A stretch of DNA of 64,000 nucleotides, taken from UHGV virus genome UHGV-0076293. One strand, 5' to 3'. The stretch's first letter is position 1; each line of letters starts with the position of its first letter. The position numbers and the translations under genes were made by a program. Under the pieces are notes generated by a model. That model worked only from the letters and a program-made list of their open reading frames with translations, searched no databases and was not told the DNA's origin. Shown here in pieces: positions 3,807-59,170 of the stretch. The stretch is from a virus.

Positions 3807-5157
3807 TAAGCCGTCAACATTTGAACCCGTAGACCGGCCTATCCCCGAATTAAATAAACCACAGGACGGTGTAAAAGAAACCACCAATATCGTTACGCAA
3901 CCCACACGTACAACTGTTACTGATTTAGACCGTATTCCAAAGCAATACCTAATGAAGTATCTGGAAGGGTCAGCGTGGACGGTGGACTTCTTTAACTTCC
4001 TGAAAGGAAGAAACGACGCCAAGAAGTTTTTCGATTCGAAAGTGCTTACACCTGACCAACAGGTGGAGAAAATCATCGGGTTGGAGCTGCGTGTAACGAC
4101 ACCGCTCGACCGTAGCCAAGACACCACGAACAAAACGTTCAGCATGTCAGGCGCTGCAACAATTGCAAACTCGATTATCCCTAACGAGGGTTGCTTTTTC
4201 ATCGCCCCTATCGGTGACGGTCGTTTCGCGTTGTTTAACGTTACCAACGTTGTGCGTATGTCGAATAACAAAGTCGCGACGTACAACATTGAATACACGT
4301 TACTTTTCGAAGTTGACCCAGAAACCGCAGAAACGATTCGTCGTTGTACCGTACGTGAATACTACTACGTTGCAGAGCGTGCCTGGACAGGTGGTGATAC
4401 ACTTCTCACACCGAAAGAGTACCGTGCGTTCCTGGAAGTCGTTGACGCGATTGAAGACATTGAACAGACGTATGTAAAACGTTTCTACGACGGTGAAACG
4501 GCCACGTTGTTGTTCCCACACGATCGTCACAGCGACGGTTTGCGTAGCCGTGCTTACTACGACGTGTTCTTAGCGCTGTTTGTGCGCGCGGTGGGGTTAC
4601 GTACCGTAGGTAAGGATATTCAGATTTATCCGCACCCACCGATGAACGTGGAAGACATTGAAACGGTGTGGACAGCGCTGCTGCAACAGTCGCCAACGTT
4701 CTTAGCAGATTACAAACGTGACAGCACGGTGTGGCAAACGAAAACTTTCCGTACGATGCAACATCGTAACTCGGTAACGTGGTCGTTGATCTCTGATACC
4801 CGGTTCTTTACGGAAGAGTTAAAGCCAGGTTACGGGATGGCGCAACGTTTCCCCGGTCAGTGGCCAGAATGGAAACCGTTTGAGCCGGTTGAAGTTGAAA
4901 ACTATCGTGGGAACGAAGGGGAGTCTATTCCGGCCTTCCTACCGCTGTCCTTTAAACCGTATTTGCTGAGCGAGACGTTCTACGACGGTTCTTACAGTTC
5001 GTTGTTGGAATACGGCTTGTACTTGTACCTGCATAAACGTTCGCTACCGTCGGTAATTGCGTTAAAACTGTTTGAGGAAGTTTATAAGCTCCCGAAAGAC
5101 GCACAGTTCTATTACATTCCGATGGTGTATCTGCTTTTAAGATATTCGAGGGATTAA
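3787..5157 (+). CDS. hypothetical protein (456 aa)
   Basis: GAGGGA RBS; start overlaps upstream gene by 20 nt. Confidence 0.75.
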   Translation: MLKAKRDKPSTFEPVDRPIPELNKPQDGVKETTNIVTQPTRTTVTDLDRIPKQYLMKYLEGSAWTVDFFNFLKGRNDAKKFFDSKVLTPDQQVEKIIGLELRVTTPLDRSQDTTNKTFSMSGAATIANSIIPNEGCFFIAPIGDGRFALFNVTNVVRMSNNKVATYNIEYTLLFEVDPETAETIRRCTVREYYYVAERAWTGGDTLLTPKEYRAFLEVVDAIEDIEQTYVKRFYDGETATLLFPHDRHSDGLRSRAYYDVFLALFVRAVGLRTVGKDIQIYPHPPMNVEDIETVWTALLQQSPTFLADYKRDSTVWQTKTFRTMQHRNSVTWSLISDTRFFTEELKPGYGMAQRFPGQWPEWKPFEPVEVENYRGNEGESIPAFLPLSFKPYLLSETFYDGSYSSLLEYGLYLYLHKRSLPSVIALKLFEEVYKLPKDAQFYYIPMVYLLLRYSRD

Positions 5158-5158
5158 T

Positions 5159-5698
5159 GTGTCAGTGAAACGTAGTGCAGCATTTATGCTGTTCCATAAG
5201 TGGGTAGCATGGCGGGTTCCTGAATGGACAACCATCACCCAGTATATGTCGCAAGAACACGGATTGTTCTTGCCGGATGACGAAAAGAAAGCACGAGCGA
5301 TTTTGTTGAATAAGAAAACGGTCTATATGCGGCCATTTGAAGTGGCGGTGTATGCAGAGACCGGTGCTGCGTTAGATGTTCACGATCCGAATGACGGTAT
5401 TATCGTTTACGGATATATCATGGAACACCTAGCAGATTGGTTACATTACATGCAAGAGCCTCATCTGACGACGCGTAAAGTGCCGATAGAAGGACTCCGT
5501 CAGTTCAACGCCTTAGCATGTAAACTCTTTCCCGTTGCTAACCGATACGGTTATTTTAAGAAACCGGAAGTGACGATGGCGACGTCGGTACAAGCGTTAT
5601 TTGGAGAGGTGCGTTTAGAAACGCAGCAACACCGTTTTAACGATACGATAATGCGACGTATAGAAGCGATTTATCGTAAAAGGGGAGGTATACTGTAA
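5159..5698 (+). CDS. hypothetical protein (179 aa)
   Basis: GTG start 2 nt after upstream stop, GAGGG RBS. Confidence 0.7.
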   Translation: MSVKRSAAFMLFHKWVAWRVPEWTTITQYMSQEHGLFLPDDEKKARAILLNKKTVYMRPFEVAVYAETGAALDVHDPNDGIIVYGYIMEHLADWLHYMQEPHLTTRKVPIEGLRQFNALACKLFPVANRYGYFKKPEVTMATSVQALFGEVRLETQQHRFNDTIMRRIEAIYRKRGGIL

Positions 5699-7017
5699 TG
5701 TCGTTTGGTCGGTTACAGAACATAGCAAACGTGCACATTGCACAAGCGGCGGGATTACCGGCCATCGAATACGTACCTATCATTACGGTACGTGGCACAG
5801 TTATCAGCGTATTTAAAACGTTGTCGATAATCCATGCCAGTAACTTCGCACAGGACTTAACGACTATCACCCATCTTACCGTGATGATACCGTTAAGCCA
5901 ACAGCGTGTGTTAACGTCTTCCGCAGACGGGGATTTGTCCGTGAAAATTCTAATGCGGACAATGAACAAGAAAACCGTTGCGAAACTCGACTATCGGGGT
6001 ATCGTCGTGAACAACCACGATCCCGATATGGAATCGCCCACGATGTTCTTAGGTGAGTCTGACCAGAAAGCGTTAGCGGTCGTCACCCTGGAGTTGATGG
6101 ACGAGTCGATGTGGTTCTTACGTTGCCGTCAAGTCGGTGGGATTTATCACGAGACAGATGGTCTTAGTGTTGTTCGTGCACTGCTGGCAGATACGTTACC
6201 TACTGGTGATGCGCCAGAAGGCCAGTTGGTGGGTGTGGAGTACGAGGAAGAGGAGCAACAGCCCTATCGGGATATTTTGATTCCTGACTCGGAAAGTTTC
6301 CTGTCCGTGTTCGATTACCTTCAGAATCGTTACGGGGTTTATAGTCAAGGTCTGGGGGTGTTCCTCTACAAACACCGTTGGTATATTTTCCAACCTTGGG
6401 ATTCTAAGAAGTTTTCATCAGCGAAGAATAAGCTGGTGATTATAAACCTGCCGAAAGAGAAAGCAGCGTATCTGAATAAGACCTGCCACATTGACGGTGA
6501 CGTGATTTACCTGATATGTGGTGGCGATGTCCACACCTTCGAAGATAAAGACTCCTTAGCACTAAACCAAGGTACCGGTTATCGTGTGGGGTCTATCCGT
6601 GCGTTGGATGGCCGTGCGTCTTCTTTCTCGTCAGGCGATGTTTCTGCTACAACGTCAGATTCGTTCGTGTCAGCGGCTGATCCGACGCAATATCCAGGTG
6701 GGGTGGTTAACGCACCAATAGACCCGAACCAACACTTCTCGGACACAGATAAACCGCAACGGTCTAAGTTGGCGGCGGCGAAAGGGACGCTAACAGCAAC
6801 AACCTGGAACGCATCAACGTACGGCTTACTCCGTCCGGGGATGGCAGTAAAATATATTTATGCGAATAACTATGGTGTATACACGCGTTACGGAACATTA
6901 GTTGCAGAAGTTTTCCAAGGTGCAATTGATGGTGGTTCAGCGGCTTCACCACGGTTTAATACCATTAGCCAGTTGACGTTGTGGCTGACTAATGAAAATT
7001 TTACATCCACAACGTAA
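5698..7017 (+). CDS. hypothetical protein (439 aa)
   Basis: TAATG stop/start overlap, AGGGGAGG RBS. Confidence 0.75.
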   Translation: MSFGRLQNIANVHIAQAAGLPAIEYVPIITVRGTVISVFKTLSIIHASNFAQDLTTITHLTVMIPLSQQRVLTSSADGDLSVKILMRTMNKKTVAKLDYRGIVVNNHDPDMESPTMFLGESDQKALAVVTLELMDESMWFLRCRQVGGIYHETDGLSVVRALLADTLPTGDAPEGQLVGVEYEEEEQQPYRDILIPDSESFLSVFDYLQNRYGVYSQGLGVFLYKHRWYIFQPWDSKKFSSAKNKLVIINLPKEKAAYLNKTCHIDGDVIYLICGGDVHTFEDKDSLALNQGTGYRVGSIRALDGRASSFSSGDVSATTSDSFVSAADPTQYPGGVVNAPIDPNQHFSDTDKPQRSKLAAAKGTLTATTWNASTYGLLRPGMAVKYIYANNYGVYTRYGTLVAEVFQGAIDGGSAASPRFNTISQLTLWLTNENFTSTT

Positions 7018-7043
7018 GTTATGTCGACAGCAACCTAAAGGAT

Positions 7044-7850
7044 TTGTTAATGAGCAATTTACTTACTTTCCGCATGTCTGGTCAAACGTTAATGCAGATT
7101 GACGAGTACGAAAAAGAACATTTCGCTAAACCGTCTAAACTGTTAGAACGTTGCTTAAAGGTTATTCCAGGCGGCGAGCATTGTCAGCTAGATTTCGTCA
7201 TGGCGTCTTCTGCTGACAAAACGGTCTCTGTTATCTACACGGTTGACGGAGTACAGGGCCATCGCTTATTACCGATTGAAGAAAAAGGTTCTTTGGGTAA
7301 TTTGTTGTTCTTGCACGCAATCACGACTGCGGTAGTGACGGGAGCACTGGAAGCGCAGTACGGTTTCGCGTATTGTTATTTCTACGCACAGAAGTTGGCG
7401 AATGCGGTAGTTCCAGGAGAACCAGAAACGTATCCGAAGTATATCGAACGTTTGCTTCCGACGCATTTTGCTGAGTCTGACGACTATGAGTTCAATGCTT
7501 TCCGTTTCACGATGGTTGGCGAAGCACGCGATCCTGAAAACACCATTGCGTTACGTGCTGTTGTTCGTTACGCAGTAATTTCGTCTGACAGCGGAATGGC
7601 AAGCAACTTCAACGAAGTGTTCCCGGTTATGCAACTAGGTCCGTATATCACGTTTAATGCGTACGTACCGTTTACTTGTCAGTTAATCGGCCCGCAGGAT
7701 AACGATTCTATCCTCCCGATTACTGAAGAGAAAGGTCTGCATATTCGTGACGCTGTAGAAGTCATCAATGATAAACGTTTTACGATCTCATCAAAAAGCG
7801 GTATTGCTGATGAAGAACTTGCGGTCGTGAACAAAATGCAAGTGATGTAA
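7044..7850 (+). CDS. hypothetical protein (268 aa)
   Basis: ORF followed by a strong intrinsic terminator. Confidence 0.75.
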   Translation: MLMSNLLTFRMSGQTLMQIDEYEKEHFAKPSKLLERCLKVIPGGEHCQLDFVMASSADKTVSVIYTVDGVQGHRLLPIEEKGSLGNLLFLHAITTAVVTGALEAQYGFAYCYFYAQKLANAVVPGEPETYPKYIERLLPTHFAESDDYEFNAFRFTMVGEARDPENTIALRAVVRYAVISSDSGMASNFNEVFPVMQLGPYITFNAYVPFTCQLIGPQDNDSILPITEEKGLHIRDAVEVINDKRFTISSKSGIADEELAVVNKMQVM

Positions 7851-7856
7851 AATTAT

Positions 7857-7896
7857 CCCGTTACCTTTGTGGGTAACGGGATGTCCTTTTATTTAC
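7857..7896 (+). terminator. intrinsic terminator
   Basis: hairpin CCCGTTACC-TTTGT-GGGTAACGGG followed by a T-rich stretch. Confidence 0.7.
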
Positions 7897-8010
7897 TCGT
7901 AAATGCGTCTTAGACGCTGTTTTACACCTTAAGACGATTAATGGTGTTTAAAAAATAAAAGGTCGTCAGAATGCGATACAGCGCGTTTTAGAGGGTGTTT
8001 TAATTAAAAA

Positions 8011-8065
8011 TATTTTCAGATATATATTACTTAGGTGAGAGAATTACGTAATACTCATTTATCGA
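8011..8065 (+). promoter_or_regulatory. phage promoter-like element with downstream 5'-UTR hairpin (copy 1)
   Basis: TTTTCAGATATATATTACTTAGGTGAGAG followed by an imperfect palindrome; about 25 nt upstream of an AGGAG RBS; one of five near-identical copies. Confidence 0.6.
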
Positions 8066-8087
8066 ATACCTAATTAGGAGCTATATC

Positions 8088-8231
8088 ATGATTTCTGTAA
8101 AACACAAAAAAGCTATCTTCGCTGTTGTTATCGCTGTTGTTCTGGGTTGCCTGTACCTGGATATCGATAAAGGCTACGACACTTGCATCGACAACGGTAA
8201 TTCCGTTGCGCAGTGCACTGGTCGTGGTTAA
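8088..8231 (+). CDS. small lipoprotein (47 aa)
   Basis: not in the ORF track; N-terminal K-rich plus hydrophobic signal ending in lipobox VLGC; AGGAG RBS; optimal codons; own promoter motif and terminator. Confidence 0.6.
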   Translation: MISVKHKKAIFAVVIAVVLGCLYLDIDKGYDTCIDNGNSVAQCTGRG

Positions 8232-8236
8232 TGTAT

Positions 8237-8268
8237 AAGGCACCTTCGGGTGCCCTTAATTTTTTTAT
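8237..8268 (+). terminator. intrinsic terminator
   Basis: AAGGCACC-TTCG-GGTGCCCTT hairpin followed by a T-run. Confidence 0.75.
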
Positions 8269-8285
8269 TAATTGGAGCATAAACG

Positions 8286-9101
8286 ATGATTACTATTAAA
8301 GATTATTTTCCGCGTGGGTTGAGCAATGAAAACTTCGTTCCAACTGAAGACATTGCCATCGTTGCAGAGTCCAGCGATAAGTCTTTTAAACTCTACTTGA
8401 GTACGGCAGCAGGAAAATCCACTCTTATCCTTCGTGAACCTGAAGTGATAAGCATCTGCTCGTTTGGGGGTGGTGTAGAAGGAACGATTAACTGGTTGAA
8501 ATCCAGAATGCATCGTTTGCTTATCGTGAATACCGATCCTGTGATTCGTTTACAGCAATTGAAATCGTTGAATGAAATTATCGTCGGATTATTGGAACAT
8601 GAAACGTTTGGTAATGCTGAGATTGCGGAAGCGATTAAATCTGTAGAACTAATCGAGTGGAGCGATATCGAATACGAACGTGCTGGGTTATTCGCAATGT
8701 ACGGTGATGATAATCCCGTTGCGTTTGCACAAACGTTGGATAATGTTACCGTAACAGCGCGCGTATTGTTTGGTTTACAACGTGTTGAGTTTGAACTGAA
8801 ACACGTCTACGTGAGCAATAAACCGGAGATGGTGGAGACATTGATTCGTGCTTTCGCATACCCGTTAGACGGTGAATGGGAACAGCAGATTAATGAAGCG
8901 TTAGAAGCCATGCATTTCCTGGCTGAAACGTTAAGGAAGGATGAGAAATTGAAAGGTCGTGTTTATCCAGAACACGATTTTGTTTGTGAAGAATGTGGAG
9001 CACAGTATCAAATCCGTGTTCCTTTAACCGGCCTAACATTCCCGCAAGCCAACGTGCAATGTAAGGAATGTGGTCATGTTCAATACGTAGCGATTAAATA
9101 A
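8286..9101 (+). CDS. hypothetical protein with C-terminal zinc ribbon
   Basis: 271 aa; C-terminal CEECG...CKECG (CxxC-x-CxxC) motif. Confidence 0.75.
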   Translation: MITIKDYFPRGLSNENFVPTEDIAIVAESSDKSFKLYLSTAAGKSTLILREPEVISICSFGGGVEGTINWLKSRMHRLLIVNTDPVIRLQQLKSLNEIIVGLLEHETFGNAEIAEAIKSVELIEWSDIEYERAGLFAMYGDDNPVAFAQTLDNVTVTARVLFGLQRVEFELKHVYVSNKPEMVETLIRAFAYPLDGEWEQQINEALEAMHFLAETLRKDEKLKGRVYPEHDFVCEECGAQYQIRVPLTGLTFPQANVQCKECGHVQYVAIK

Positions 9102-9107
9102 AAGCAA

Positions 9108-9150
9108 CCCCTAATCCCGAAAAGGATTAGGGGTACACTTTATTTATTTT
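9108..9150 (+). terminator. intrinsic terminator
   Basis: CCCCTAATCC-CGAAAA-GGATTAGGGG hairpin followed by a T-rich stretch. Confidence 0.7.
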
Positions 9151-9173
9151 CGCTCTTAAAAGGAAATTGTGTC

Positions 9174-9329
9174 ATGAGAAATGTTAATGCAATGCTTAAC
9201 CAGGCATTTGTTAACCAACAGCGTTTTCAGGAACGCTTAGCACAACTTAAAACACAACACAGACCACCACAACAAAGAGTGGTTAAGAGCAAGTTCGGCG
9301 AAATGGTTTTCGAAAGAAAATCTTTCTAA
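9174..9329 (+). CDS. small basic protein (51 aa), member a of a tandem trio
   Basis: not in the ORF track; AAGGA RBS; followed by a terminator hairpin; shares FxERL and FERKS-type motifs with the next two small ORFs. Confidence 0.45.
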   Translation: MRNVNAMLNQAFVNQQRFQERLAQLKTQHRPPQQRVVKSKFGEMVFERKSF

Positions 9330-9337
9330 TAACCGTT

Positions 9338-9361
9338 AGGGGTGTGACAGCACCCCTTTTT
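9338..9361 (+). terminator. intrinsic terminator
   Basis: AGGGGTG-TGACAG-CACCCCT hairpin followed by TTTT. Confidence 0.65.
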
Positions 9362-9479: not shown

Positions 9480-9647
9480 ATGTTCGACAGTATTACACAA
9501 ATTTTTAACACTACCGTAAACAATCACGCTCAGCAAGCGAAGTTTAATGAACGATTAAGGGAAGTTCAACAATTAGGATTAAATAAAAGATTAAAATCTT
9601 CCAATAATCCTCGAGTACAGATCTTCACCGAAAGGAGAAGTAACTGA
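9480..9647 (+). CDS. small basic protein (55 aa), member b of a tandem trio
   Basis: not in the ORF track; AGAGG RBS; C-terminal QLGLNKRLKSSNN...QIFTERRS closely matches member c. Confidence 0.5.
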   Translation: MFDSITQIFNTTVNNHAQQAKFNERLREVQQLGLNKRLKSSNNPRVQIFTERRSN

Positions 9648-9656
9648 TAAAAACAA

Positions 9657-9684
9657 GGTGAGCTGTTGGAGCAGCTCACCTTTT
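9657..9684 (+). terminator. intrinsic terminator
   Basis: GGTGAGCTG-TTGGAG-CAGCTCACC hairpin followed by TTTT. Confidence 0.7.
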
Positions 9685-9743: not shown

Positions 9744-9917
9744 ATGAACAATGGTTACTACTTTACTGACAAAATGCTTGCAGAACAATATGCAGCAAAA
9801 ACCAATTTACAGCAACGTATCTACGAGTATAGTCAACTCGGTGCGAATAAACGATTAAAACCATCAACCAACCGTTTCACACAGATAATCACTGAAAAAA
9901 GGAGTGAACGCTACTAA
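9744..9917 (+). CDS. small basic protein (57 aa), member c of a tandem trio
   Basis: not in the ORF track; AGAGGG RBS; QLGANKRLKPSTN...QIITEKRS matches member b. Confidence 0.5.
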   Translation: MNNGYYFTDKMLAEQYAAKTNLQQRIYEYSQLGANKRLKPSTNRFTQIITEKRSERY

Positions 9918-10052
9918 CTAATAAAAGGGGGTGTGCTACCACCCCCTACTTAGTTCAGCAGTTGTCTTTCGTTCATAAATATTAGATGTCTTGTTTTTTT
10001 TTGCTTTTCGGGACGCATAAGGGGTCGTAGGGGGAGCCGAAGCTCCCCAGAC

Positions 10053-12165: not shown

Positions 12166-14451
12166 ATGAAAGATACCCGAATCTCTAATTTAGAGAAACT
12201 CGTAGAAGCCGGTACTAGTCTGGCCCAAAACGTCATCGGCAACAACACCGCCAGCGAAATGTGGAAGACGATTGTTGCAGGCGAGTCCGTACGTAGCAAC
12301 GCAAAAGTATTTGGCGCTCTGCGTGACGAAGCATCACAGCACTATGCCAACGCTTTTGGCGGCAAGAAAATGTCTCATGCTGCGACCGTCGCTTCCGCAA
12401 TGATTCTGGGCGTAGCTAACCACGGTAAAGACCTGCAAGAACGTGTTGCCCAGGAATACGCTAAGCCGGAATTCCACACCAAGTATAACCTGGATATTGG
12501 TATCCCTGGTGCGCAAGGTGGTGATTGGGGTCGTGAGCGTATGGTTGTTGCTCAGGAATACTACAGCAACAAAGACTACGACAAAAACCTGGGCCTGACC
12601 TGGACCCTGAACGTACGTGCTCTGGAAACTCAGTCCAAGTTTGCTGAAACACTGTTCCCGACCATTACCGTTGACACCAACGATGTTGGTATTACCGTAC
12701 GTACTAAAGTGACTACCGTTTCTCGCGGTATCATGAACGCGCTGCTGAGCAAAGACGTCGTTGAAGATCATCGTCGTCCGCTGCACAACGCTCTGACTGA
12801 CCACACCGTTCTCCAGGACGAAGCGATCAACATCGTTCCTTACGTAATGGAAACCGGTGAAAACCAGGAATACTTCGTAAGCGAAGATCTGGTTCCGAAC
12901 GAAACCGTTCGCCTGGGCCGTGTACCTCCGTATCCGACTAACTACCTGAGCTTTGCAAACGACACACTGAACCTGTTCCAGCTGTCTGCGCATCCGGGTA
13001 TTGTTCAGGAAGGTTACGATGAAACTGATGAAATCGCACCGGGTTGTGCTCTGGGCAGCCTGCTGATTTCTGTACGTAAACCGGCCGAAGAAGCGAAAGC
13101 GGGTAAATTCATCAAACTGCACGTTCGTGACATGCAGTTCGCAACCTTCCAGCGTCCTGCTGAAGGTGACGGCCGTGAACTGGTTCTGCAATTCCGTCGT
13201 ACCGCGTTCTCTCTGAATGCGAAAACCACTGACTGGAAAGGCGACGCTATTCCGGCACTGCAAGCACTGGGCCAGAACTCCTACACCCTGCGCTACGTTA
13301 TCACCATCACCATGTCCCTGTTCACCAGCGGCCAGTTCGGTGGTAAAGTAGACATTTCCGGCCACAAACTGGAAATCGAAGGTCTGTACGATGCAACTGG
13401 TAACAAAGTTGATACCAAGTCTGGTACCGGTAAAGTTATCCTGGACGGCCTGAAACTCGAGCTGATGGGCTGGCGCTTCGATGGTACTCGTACCAACGAA
13501 AACCGTCGTACCCAGGGTCTGCTGCTTGACCCAATTTGGGAACAGGAAAACTACAAACTGCAATACGGTTCTCCGATTCTGACCAAGTCTCCGGTTGGTG
13601 TTGAATACGACGACACTGAACGTCTGGATGACCTGATCTCTGCGGTGAACATCCGTAACGAACAGCTGGCTATTACTCAGACGCTGTCTTACACTGAAGC
13701 AGTACGTAACGCAGCCGCTGCGATGATCACTCCGTGGGACAAACCGGCTATCCGTGGTCTGGGCCGTCACTGGGTTGCTCCGTGGTTCAAAGAGTCTGAC
13801 TACAAAGTCGATGAAGTTGTTCAGTCTCTGGATACCAAAGAAGCGCTGATCAACGCTCGTCAGGGTCTGTTGCAGCGTATCGGTAGCCAGGTAACTCAGG
13901 CTATCCAGGATTCTCGTTTCATTCCTGCACTGCGCCTGCTGACTGCTGATCCGGACATTCTGCCGAAAGTTATCATCGCAACTGACGAACCGACTGCATC
14001 CATGCTGCTGCTGGTTCAGGGCGACCAACGTCTGCTGGGCGACCGTTATGAATACGAAGTCGTTACCACCAACGATGACCGCTGGCGTATCTACAACGCA
14101 GCTGACGATTCCTGGACTCGTCGTCTGCAATGGTTCCTGAAAGTTCCGACTGCGGACGATGGTTCCTACTGCGTACTGAACTGGGGTAACCACTTCTGGT
14201 CTCCGATCATGGTTACCAACATCAACATCCAGCGTAACGGTTCTACTTCTAAAGAACTGGCTGTACAGCCGCGTAACGCGCATATCTGCCACTGCCCGAT
14301 CACTGGTCTGATTTGGGTTAAAGGCATCACCAAACTGGTTGAAGAAAAACTGGCTTACAACGTTTCTGTAGAACAGAACGGCCAGAAACAAACCGAAGGT
14401 GGTGTAGCAGGTAATGTTGCTGGCGACGGTAAAGACAAAGCTGGTAAATAA
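12166..14451 (+). CDS. abundant virion protein, probable major capsid protein (761 aa)
   Basis: extreme bias to enterobacterial optimal codons (CTG, CGT, GGT, ACC, AAA, GAA); the bias leaves a 685-aa stop-free antisense frame; size fits the ~750-aa major capsid proteins of phiKZ-like phages; no motif-level confirmation possible here. Confidence 0.5.
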   Translation: MKDTRISNLEKLVEAGTSLAQNVIGNNTASEMWKTIVAGESVRSNAKVFGALRDEASQHYANAFGGKKMSHAATVASAMILGVANHGKDLQERVAQEYAKPEFHTKYNLDIGIPGAQGGDWGRERMVVAQEYYSNKDYDKNLGLTWTLNVRALETQSKFAETLFPTITVDTNDVGITVRTKVTTVSRGIMNALLSKDVVEDHRRPLHNALTDHTVLQDEAINIVPYVMETGENQEYFVSEDLVPNETVRLGRVPPYPTNYLSFANDTLNLFQLSAHPGIVQEGYDETDEIAPGCALGSLLISVRKPAEEAKAGKFIKLHVRDMQFATFQRPAEGDGRELVLQFRRTAFSLNAKTTDWKGDAIPALQALGQNSYTLRYVITITMSLFTSGQFGGKVDISGHKLEIEGLYDATGNKVDTKSGTGKVILDGLKLELMGWRFDGTRTNENRRTQGLLLDPIWEQENYKLQYGSPILTKSPVGVEYDDTERLDDLISAVNIRNEQLAITQTLSYTEAVRNAAAAMITPWDKPAIRGLGRHWVAPWFKESDYKVDEVVQSLDTKEALINARQGLLQRIGSQVTQAIQDSRFIPALRLLTADPDILPKVIIATDEPTASMLLLVQGDQRLLGDRYEYEVVTTNDDRWRIYNAADDSWTRRLQWFLKVPTADDGSYCVLNWGNHFWSPIMVTNINIQRNGSTSKELAVQPRNAHICHCPITGLIWVKGITKLVEEKLAYNVSVEQNGQKQTEGGVAGNVAGDGKDKAGK

Positions 14452-34812: not shown

Positions 34813-34848
34813 CCCCCTACCTTCGGGTAGGGGTTATTTAATTTTTTC
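34813..34848 (+). terminator. intrinsic terminator (repeat-family hairpin)
   Basis: CCCTTACCCCCTACC-TTCG-GGTAGGGG followed by a T-rich stretch. Confidence 0.75.
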
Positions 34849-34890
34849 TCAGATATATATTACCTTAGTGAGATTACACAGTAATCACTT
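34843..34890 (+). promoter_or_regulatory. phage promoter-like element with downstream 5'-UTR hairpin (copy 2)
   Basis: TTTTTTCTCAGATATATATTACCTTAGTGAGA followed by an inverted repeat (TTAC...GTAATCAC). Confidence 0.6.
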
Positions 34891-54692: not shown

Positions 54693-54736
54693 GGTAGCAG
54701 GGGCTTAGCCCCTGCTACCTTTTTCTTTATTTTTTC
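54693..54736 (+). terminator. intrinsic terminator
   Basis: GGTAGCAGGGGC-TTA-GCCCCTGCTACC followed by a T-rich stretch. Confidence 0.85.
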
Positions 54737-54782
54737 TCAGATATATATTACCTAGAGGAGAGTGAAATTTACATTCACTCCA
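54731..54782 (+). promoter_or_regulatory. phage promoter-like element with downstream 5'-UTR hairpin (copy 4)
   Basis: TTTTTTCTCAGATATATATTACCTAGAGGAGAGTGAA followed by an inverted repeat ending TTCACTCC. Confidence 0.6.
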
Positions 54783-59118: not shown

Positions 59119-59170
59119 TAATTTCAGATATATATTACCTAGGTGAGAGTTCAGTTACTCTCACTTAACC
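59119..59170 (+). promoter_or_regulatory. phage promoter-like element with downstream 5'-UTR hairpin (copy 5)
   Basis: ATTTCAGATATATATTACCTAGGTGAGAGT-TCAGT-TACTCTCAC; clean 8-bp stem. Confidence 0.65.

Follow-up and report, generated by a model that had tools for sequence, protein, structure and literature searches.

Membrane proteins of small size are frequently overlooked in phages, and for the greater part of them no function is known. Among those that have been described, Llp of phage T5 and Cor of phages phi80 and N15 are early lipoproteins that block FhuA; their mature parts comprise about 60 residues, and their lipid anchor is strictly needed. T4 Imm, P22 SieA and HK97 gp15 are small phage membrane proteins, expressed early or constitutively, that stop DNA entry at the interface between the inner membrane and the periplasm. 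The subject here is a gene of 47 codons at positions 8088-8231 of a stretch of 64,000 nucleotides from the virus genome UHGV-0076293 (the whole stretch is referred to as the window). An earlier, sequence-only reading had described it as an unannotated lipoprotein gene with its own promoter and terminator. By homology and synteny this open reading frame (ORF) is a real gene and the orthologue of SPN3US gp66, and it falls within a family that is already catalogued, phrog_8574. Its product may, at about an even chance, be a periplasmic mini-peptide that is tethered to the membrane with its N-terminus in the cytoplasm and its C-terminus outside (N-in/C-out) and that acts early on the envelope.

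The protein resembles Llp and Cor in being small, targeted to the envelope, equipped with cysteines and apparently expressed before lysis, and the exclusion of superinfecting phage is plausible for both. In contrast to Llp and Cor, the exposed part of the window family amounts to about 22-26 residues, and most relatives lack the anchoring Cys. No relationship in sequence is detectable, and the comparison with T5 Llp and phi80 Cor made in the sequence-only reading is reduced to loose functional analogies. With regard to a possible mode of action, the closest analogy would be T4 Imm, P22 SieA and HK97 gp15. These proteins differ from the window protein in that they have at least two membrane helices and no cystine-stapled tail, and there is no homology between them and the window protein.

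The features of the locus, all on the + strand, are as follows.

7854..7883, + strand: terminator-like hairpin of 13 pairs followed by a T-run, which closes the upstream gene of 268 amino acids (phrog_8163) and insulates the 47-codon unit
8015..8041, + strand: probable early (virion RNA polymerase) promoter motif TTCAGATATATATTACTTAGGTGAGAG, with an A/T-rich stretch ahead of it from about 8000
8076..8080, + strand: Shine-Dalgarno sequence AGGAG, 7 nucleotides 5' of the ATG
8088..8231, + strand: coding sequence of 47 residues (ATG at 8088, TAA at 8229-8231), phrog_8574 / SPN3US gp66 family
8112..8159, + strand: apolar segment A9-L24, AIFAVVIAVVLGCLYL, a predicted membrane helix or signal-peptide h-region
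8139..8150, + strand: candidate lipobox V18-L19-G20-C21, which matches the relaxed PROSITE pattern only
8175..8228, + strand: conserved C-terminal module Y30-DT-C33-IDNGNSVAQ-C43-TGRG (CX9C), with a predicted helix end, NGNS turn and short helix
8239..8254, + strand: terminator-like hairpin GGCACC-UUCG-GGUGCC, followed by CTTAATTTTTTTATT, the element extending to 8269

The sequence features named by the sequence-only reading, namely the ORF, its ribosome-binding site, a signal-like N-terminus, the promoter motif and the terminator, were all recovered at these places. The 47-residue product (MISVKHKKAIFAVVIAVVLGCLYLDIDKGYDTCIDNGNSVAQCTGRG) is matched from end to end by phrog_8574, a family of unknown function (E=3.4e-23; residues 1-47 aligned with all 47 positions of the profile). 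A tblastn search matched the C-terminal half in 61 phage records, and in the records inspected the match was an annotated 'hypothetical protein' of 45-47 codons in the syntenic place. The annotated homologues include SPN3US gp66 (SPN3US_0066), SEGD1 gp067, ChrisDB gp82, Machina gp80, Asesino gp84, Wellington/Kwan gp81 and the phiEaH2 copy. The description of the gene as unannotated consequently holds for the ORF track of that first reading, but not for the phage group, as most of the related GenBank phage records that were inspected list a homologue under the label hypothetical protein. Metagenomic members were added by an exhaustive HMMER search and an alignment-seeded search, and the family set comprises 43 distinct sequences. 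A word-indexed search with the single protein returned only a 98% identical copy, and an alignment query was needed to reach the family.

The phrog_8574 members of Seoulvirus, Machinavirus, Erskinevirus and Wellingtonvirus are 43-60% identical to the window protein over their full length. They share with it a length of 45-51 amino acids, a basic N-terminus, an apolar helix and the CX9C tail, and their genes have the same early-operon place between virion genes and a DnaB-like helicase gene. Phobos gp69 (Derbicusvirus), which is more divergent, lies outside the set that was scored with the PHROG model. The window allele itself is set apart by the Cys at column 21, which is found in 19 of the 43 members, by an acidic LDID directly after the helix, and by Gly29 where most members have Asp.

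Some outlying copies deserve separate mention. The divergent Derbicusvirus copies, Phobos gp69 (5017-5154) and an ORF of Cronobacter phage CR5, were located through the syntenic region. The CR5 homologue (MKAYFNTRVLAVFIIATLLGTLGASVVKGYEQCRANGHSSMTCNR; JX094500.1, ~5350-5487) is an unannotated gene of 45 codons between CR5_066 and CR5_067. The CX9C pair and the NG-x-S turn are retained in both, but their tails end in CNR instead of CTGRG. In Salmonella phage SPFM7 (LR535904.1, ~1380-1620) the unannotated gene appears circularly permuted, with ...CTGRG running straight into CAIFAIVAVV..., which is probably an assembly artefact. Several other SPFM records have no annotated feature under a partial match.

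The shortness of the ORF and the overlap with antisense ORFs of 50 and 57 codons could suggest that it is an untranslated chance ORF. However, the existence of 43 homologues with saturated synonymous changes and few non-synonymous changes in the tail gives this explanation next to no probability. When the window gene was compared with 14 homologous genes, the mean proportion of synonymous differences (pS) was 0.62, so that synonymous sites are saturated. The corresponding value for non-synonymous sites (pN) was 0.41 for the membrane part, and for the last 18 codons it was 0.14, beside a saturated pS of 0.61 there. Judged by this comparison, the C-terminal 18 codons are under strong purifying selection. 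Only the 8088-8231 frame is open in all 15 genes, the remaining frames being interrupted in relatives. In addition, Shine-Dalgarno-like sequences precede 16 homologues at equal spacing, and every copy examined has one. The self-referenced codon adaptation index (CAI) of the ORF is 0.869, as against 0.742 +/- 0.042 for 26 long ORFs of the window and 0.61-0.74 for the overlapping alternative and antisense ORFs. It ranks in the top 3% among in-frame pieces of 47 codons, and the claim of optimal codons is thus true relative to the phage's own genes. The sequence-only reading of a genuine small gene with an envelope-targeted product is supported.

The conservation of the family is concentrated in the tail and not in the anchor. 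The tail follows the pattern Y-x-x-C-x2-N-G-x-S-x3-C, and C33, G37, S39, C43, T44, G45 and R46 are invariant in 33 aligned sequences, with Y30, N36 and G47 nearly so. The CX9C tail (C33, G37, S39, C43) is invariant in the alignment of 43 sequences too. An AlphaFold2 (AF2) model built on the 33-sequence alignment (mean predicted local distance difference test score, pLDDT, 86) has a helix from residue 4 to 35 that continues through C21, the turn NGNS at 36-39 and a second helix at 40-44. In the model C33 and C43 lie on the facing arms of a small helix-turn-helix, and a C33-C43 disulfide probably staples the tail in the periplasm. Since the N-terminus is basic (K5, H6, K7, K8), an N-in/C-out orientation is expected; by the positive-inside rule, a basic N-terminus implies this topology. 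The tail is the same whether the phage is one of Salmonella, Erwinia, Escherichia or Proteus, and it has a divergent form in Cronobacter phages. This sameness across hosts points to a conserved binding partner, which could be a component of the Enterobacterales envelope or the phages' own entry machinery.

Searches for known relatives of this module gave little. Sequence searches of Pfam, NCBIfam, PADLOC and the PDB returned nothing above noise, and in a Foldseek search of the AF2 model against the PDB no match had an E-value below 4, so that the rows for thionin and helical-hairpin toxins were not significant. A protein of 381 amino acids (P0007) encoded at 448-1593 of a 1.9-kb Logan contig (SRR21621036) contains four tandem AYxxCIGNGxSxxQC modules that resemble the tail of the window protein (E=9e-4). 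Its N-terminal ~110 residues include several hydrophobic stretches, and a match to Pfam 'Thionin' is sub-threshold only; the remainder of the short contig gave no informative context. On the basis of this sequence resemblance, a similar cystine-stapled module may exist outside phages.

How the tail is attached to the envelope depends on the interpretation of the N-terminal half, which begins with the n-region MISVKHKK and has V-V-L-G ahead of Cys21. The sequence-only reading had called the product a lipoprotein with the lipobox VLGC. This call stands insofar as the window protein passes the relaxed PROSITE pattern PS51257 and its positional rules (Cys at 15-35, K/R within the first 7 residues, no charge at -10 to -5), with Cys at 21. 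It fails with respect to the consensus lipobox [LVI][ASTVI][GAS]C, from which VLGC departs by having Leu at -2. The same is true of the family, as the consensus fits none of the 19 Cys-bearing members: 18 of them have A, V or T at -3 and one has Leu there, with Leu found at -2 instead. Moreover, 24 of the 43 members have no Cys at column 21. Among the first 41, the Cys-less members have V (10), S (5), A (2), T (2), I, W or L in its place. The 24 Cys-less members of the full set include SPN3US (Val), SPAsTU, phiEaH2/Asesino (Val), Machina (Ser), pSal-SNUABM-04, Phobos (Ala) and CR5 (Thr). Because the Cys is absent from these 24 members, the function of the family, as far as homologue comparison can tell, cannot require lipidation, and by the same comparison Cys21 is a lineage-variable feature of the anchor.

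A true lipoprotein is nevertheless a possible, if the less probable, identity for the window allele. Cys21 would be diacylglycerylated by Lgt, and LspA would cut after Gly20. The resulting lipopeptide of 27 residues, with Leu at +2 and without a Lol-avoidance signal, would reach the inner leaflet of the outer membrane and there mask a receptor or block entry as T5 Llp and phi80 Cor do, and the Cys-less relatives would do likewise from a transmembrane anchor. With the entericidins as precedent, a mature lipopeptide of ~20-27 residues is biologically feasible. The entericidins EcnA/EcnB and similar bacterial lipoproteins of 40-50 residues are comparable to the window protein in overall size, but they have no sequence similarity to it, and a canonical lipobox is conserved in their family. 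PS51257 and its rules are passed by the window protein and by 17 of the 41 members scored. An h-region of 12 residues and an n-region with three Lys, both present here, are typical of lipoprotein signal peptides. The Kwan homologue (Kwan gp81) is named 'Lipoprotein' in UniRef, which would also favour this identity; the label presumably comes from the same automatic rule, and automatic annotation probably over-calls the protein.

The distribution of the Cys can be read both ways. On neighbour-joining and UPGMA (unweighted pair group method with arithmetic mean) trees with the lipobox columns masked, the Cys state switches at least 6-7 times, although these trees are weakly resolved for such very short sequences. 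Its having arisen or been kept in several lineages speaks for lipidation. On the other hand, one Cys-bearing member (P0006) has Val at -1, and another member with the same tail motif (P0032) has Trp at the Cys column. The mean Kyte-Doolittle hydropathy of the five residues past column 21 is 1.68 in Cys-bearing and 1.71 in Cys-less members, which indicates that the apolar helix is kept regardless of the Cys. Hydrophobic residues at +2 to +6 in Cys-bearing clades would be unexpected if the helix were cut away. A mixed location in the outer and inner membranes is also hard to square with an invariant tail, and none of the PHROG or Pfam families of exclusion lipoproteins is related to the protein in sequence. 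An uncleaved signal-anchor thus appears slightly likelier than lipidation for the window allele, at roughly one chance in two.

Several observations weigh against such an uncleaved, tethered peptide. In the membrane part, Cys is confined to a single column, where it occurs 19 times, and is found nowhere else. Ala or Gly stands at -1 in 18 of the 19 Cys-bearing members versus 11 of the 22 Cys-less ones (Fisher p=0.002, uncorrected for phylogeny), and in one clade 'LAC' is invariant although other membrane positions vary. These features look like selection for a lipobox. The apolar run, which measures 13-22 residues in all 41 members measured and at least 15 in all but the most divergent one, is only 16 residues long in the window protein, among the shortest of the family. 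Three apolar residues (LYL) follow Cys21 before the sequence DIDK, as compared with 5-6 in other Cys-bearing members, and this favours lipidation of the window allele in particular. The continuous helix in the AF2 model is to be read with the knowledge that AF2 renders cleavable signal peptides as helices too. Finally, the sequence and fold searches described above lend the proposed function no direct support, and a search of the available literature found no paper on SPN3US gp66.

Cleavage could also free the tail altogether. In that case signal peptidase I, or LspA where the Cys is present, would take off the N-terminal 20 residues as an ordinary signal peptide, and the soluble remainder of ~27 residues would be free to act in the periplasm or further out. 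Of the 41 members scored, 31 have A, G or S in column -1, and A or V is frequent at -3. Such residues agree with the -3/-1 rule, and Cys-less members have small residues at both places, as in A-F-A and A-F-G. The N-terminus weakly resembles AimP pre-peptides (E=0.11), which reflects a signal-peptide-like look only. This match to the arbitrium pre-peptide model NF033802, obtained with the N-terminus of the ChrisDB homologue only, reached 12.7 bits against a cut-off of 35 and was rejected as one of signal-peptide-like composition. However, the apolar run extends 3-6 residues past the putative site in all members, as is typical of uncleaved signal anchors, and there is neither a polar c-region nor a helix breaker ahead of the site. 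Action beyond the periplasm is further opposed by the fact that porins do not let out a disulfide-stapled peptide of 3 kDa. Overall, a soluble periplasmic peptide is very unlikely.

The outer-membrane spanin that the sequence-only reading had listed as an option finds even less room. The o-spanins of lysis systems, such as those of the Rz1 type, are small proteins with a Cys after an apolar N-terminus, and the window protein is alike in its size and its lipobox-like Cys. It also has a weak PHROG match to the 'Rz-like spanin' phrog_4297 (E=0.042, 14.9 bits), which was rejected because it covers mainly the membrane helix (residues 4-37). At E<=1 the PHROG matches of the window protein comprise phrog_8574 and this weak one only, with no Llp or Cor family among them and no Pfam family above noise. 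Unlike an o-spanin, the window protein lacks a conserved lipobox Cys, a partner gene, a proline-rich tail and a lysis-cassette context. No i-spanin gene is adjacent, overlapping or embedded, the neighbours being phrog_8163 and phrog_10180. The tail has no proline and only 26 residues after the Cys, and the gene lies behind an early-type promoter motif, a timing judged from the motif. As the Cys is also missing in most homologues, the chance that the gene encodes an o-spanin is negligible.

By sequence comparison, the window is from an uncultivated relative of the SPN3US group of jumbo phages, given the block at ~8000-8041 and the identity of the virion proteins. The neighbouring virion protein of 439 amino acids is 66-69% identical to its counterparts in phiEaH2/Asesino and SPN3US. 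Megablast found the ~8000-8041 block at 93-95% identity in 30 jumbo-phage records, SPN3US, phiEaH2 and Asesino included, and the search of 7000-9200 against GenBank phages gave no match beyond it. A scan of IMG/VR recovered the window phage as four contigs (150-225 kb) with a 100% identical protein, and otherwise only ChrisDB and SPN3US. A phage nucleus has been reported for SPN3US and Asesino (review PMC13282480).

Within the block, the motif core TTCAGATATATATTAC (8015-8030) is one of four copies on the + strand of the window, each with 0-1 mismatch, and a single match with 3 mismatches lies on the - strand. These 5 matches compare with 0.65 expected, and none of 100 shuffles reached 5. The extended motif of 27 nucleotides, YTCAGATATATATTACCTAGGTGAGAG, is invariant across the four window copies and those of SEGD1, ChrisDB and phiEaH2, which upholds the claim of a promoter motif copy ahead of the gene. 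The exact 14-mer CAGATATATATTAC is present as a single copy upstream of the homologue in 23 of 27 loci, and CR5 and Phobos are alike in this respect. A search for sigma-70 promoters in 7500-8700 found 0 sites versus 3.1 expected, which fits transcription by a phage polymerase. Jumbo phages of this kind carry genes for multisubunit RNA polymerases of both the virion and the non-virion type, and in RNAP-encoding jumbo phages an AT-rich motif of ~10 nucleotides near -10 of early operons has been the early virion RNA polymerase (vRNAP) promoter consensus wherever transcripts were mapped (PMC7598289). By analogy with these mapped motifs, 8015-8041 is probably an early promoter read by the virion RNA polymerase. 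A literature search for the promoter octamer returned irrelevant papers only.

In the window and in SPN3US, the 47-codon gene is the first behind the motif, ~57-60 nucleotides downstream; in other relatives, one to three small genes lie between the motif and the homologue. The window gene is monocistronic, and relatives usually carry one to three more small genes directly 3'. The terminator claimed behind the gene is also present: the hairpin at 8239-8254 starts 8 nucleotides past the stop codon and has a folding free energy (dG) of -11.6 kcal/mol (z = -2.7). A hairpin directly 3' of the gene was found in the window phage only. Since the next gene (8286-9101, phrog_10180) has no promoter motif of its own, the hairpin may attenuate transcription rather than fully stop it.

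Further copies of the motif YTCAGATATATATTACCTAGGTGAGAG are found on the + strand at 34848-34863, 54736-54751 and 59123-59138, each ~50-60 nucleotides 5' of a ribosome-binding site and ATG, and a hairpin with a T-run lies ahead of the copies at 34848 and 54736. The interval 7900-7999, which separates the upstream terminator from the promoter, contains the short repeats GCGTCTTAGACGC and CTTAAGACG. The block GCGTTTTAGAGGGTGT (7984-7999) recurs as GCGTTATAGAGGGT at the equivalent place in SEGD1 and ChrisDB and is absent ahead of the other promoter copies of the window.

From this arrangement the following course of events may be inferred. Placed first behind what is probably an early promoter for the injected virion RNA polymerase, and with a hairpin after it, the gene would be transcribed and its product made in quantity within minutes of infection. 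An early promoter of this type predicts a rifampicin-resistant transcript with its 5' end a few nucleotides past TATATTAC. The basic N-terminus would stay in the cytoplasm, and the apolar helix (A9-L24) would insert in the inner membrane. The last ~22 residues would then be periplasmic, the helix end, the NGNS turn, the short second helix and the C33-C43 disulfide forming a small rigid hairpin. In the weakest step of this proposal, the tethered hairpin would be the functional part and would most likely bind a conserved envelope component of the host or the incoming phage. The early change of the envelope would then most likely lead to superinfection exclusion or to protection of the infected cell's envelope. 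By analogy with the systems described above, superinfection exclusion or early envelope modification appears to be the most plausible role.

The flanking genes belong to families of unknown function, phrog_8163 and phrog_10180, and homologues are always situated between the phrog_8163 gene and the DnaB-like helicase gene in a syntenic early operon. Further downstream on the + strand, three successive and weakly related ORFs of 51-57 codons (9174-9329, 9480-9647 and 9744-9917) each have a ribosome-binding site and are followed by hairpin terminators at ~9334-9360, ~9656-9682 and ~9925-9948. They have weak similarity to SPN3US gp71/gp72 and Machina gp83 and no PHROG match, and appear to be a small family of paralogues, each a monocistronic unit, in the interval from the 47-codon unit to the helicase gene. 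An antisense ORF of 685 codons (12334-14391, - strand) lies wholly within the + strand ORF of 761 codons at 12166-14451 and is probably a compositional artefact.

In conclusion, a lipobox pattern match in a protein of 47 residues is insufficient for a lipoprotein call, as the comparison of homologues indicates that the Cys is optional. The claim of a new early lipoprotein is weakened by these relatives, and the gene instead adds a member to a known, uncharacterised family. It is conceivable, though unlikely, that the phrog_8574 peptides serve the SPN3US-like nucleus-forming jumbo phages as a dedicated 'first-minutes' effector at the envelope. In this form of the proposal, an invariant, helical, cystine-stapled mini-hairpin on the periplasmic face would bind a conserved component of the envelope or of entry and thereby close the cell to further injections, or stabilise the membrane that gives rise to the early-infection vesicle, and its tether would have switched to and fro during evolution between a transmembrane helix and a lipid anchor. 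If so, one ligand would be carried by either the inner or the outer membrane, the family would show the exchange of anchors as an experiment made by nature, and it would constitute an exclusion module of a new and very small kind. SPN3US is genetically tractable, which makes the question directly testable. None of the SPN3US-, Machina-, Erskine-, Wellington- or Derbicus-type loci that were inspected lacks the gene, although the early region around it is variable. This retention, together with its place as the first gene after the early promoter in SPN3US and the window phage, makes it a reasonable candidate for a role at the envelope early in infection by nucleus-forming jumbo phages.

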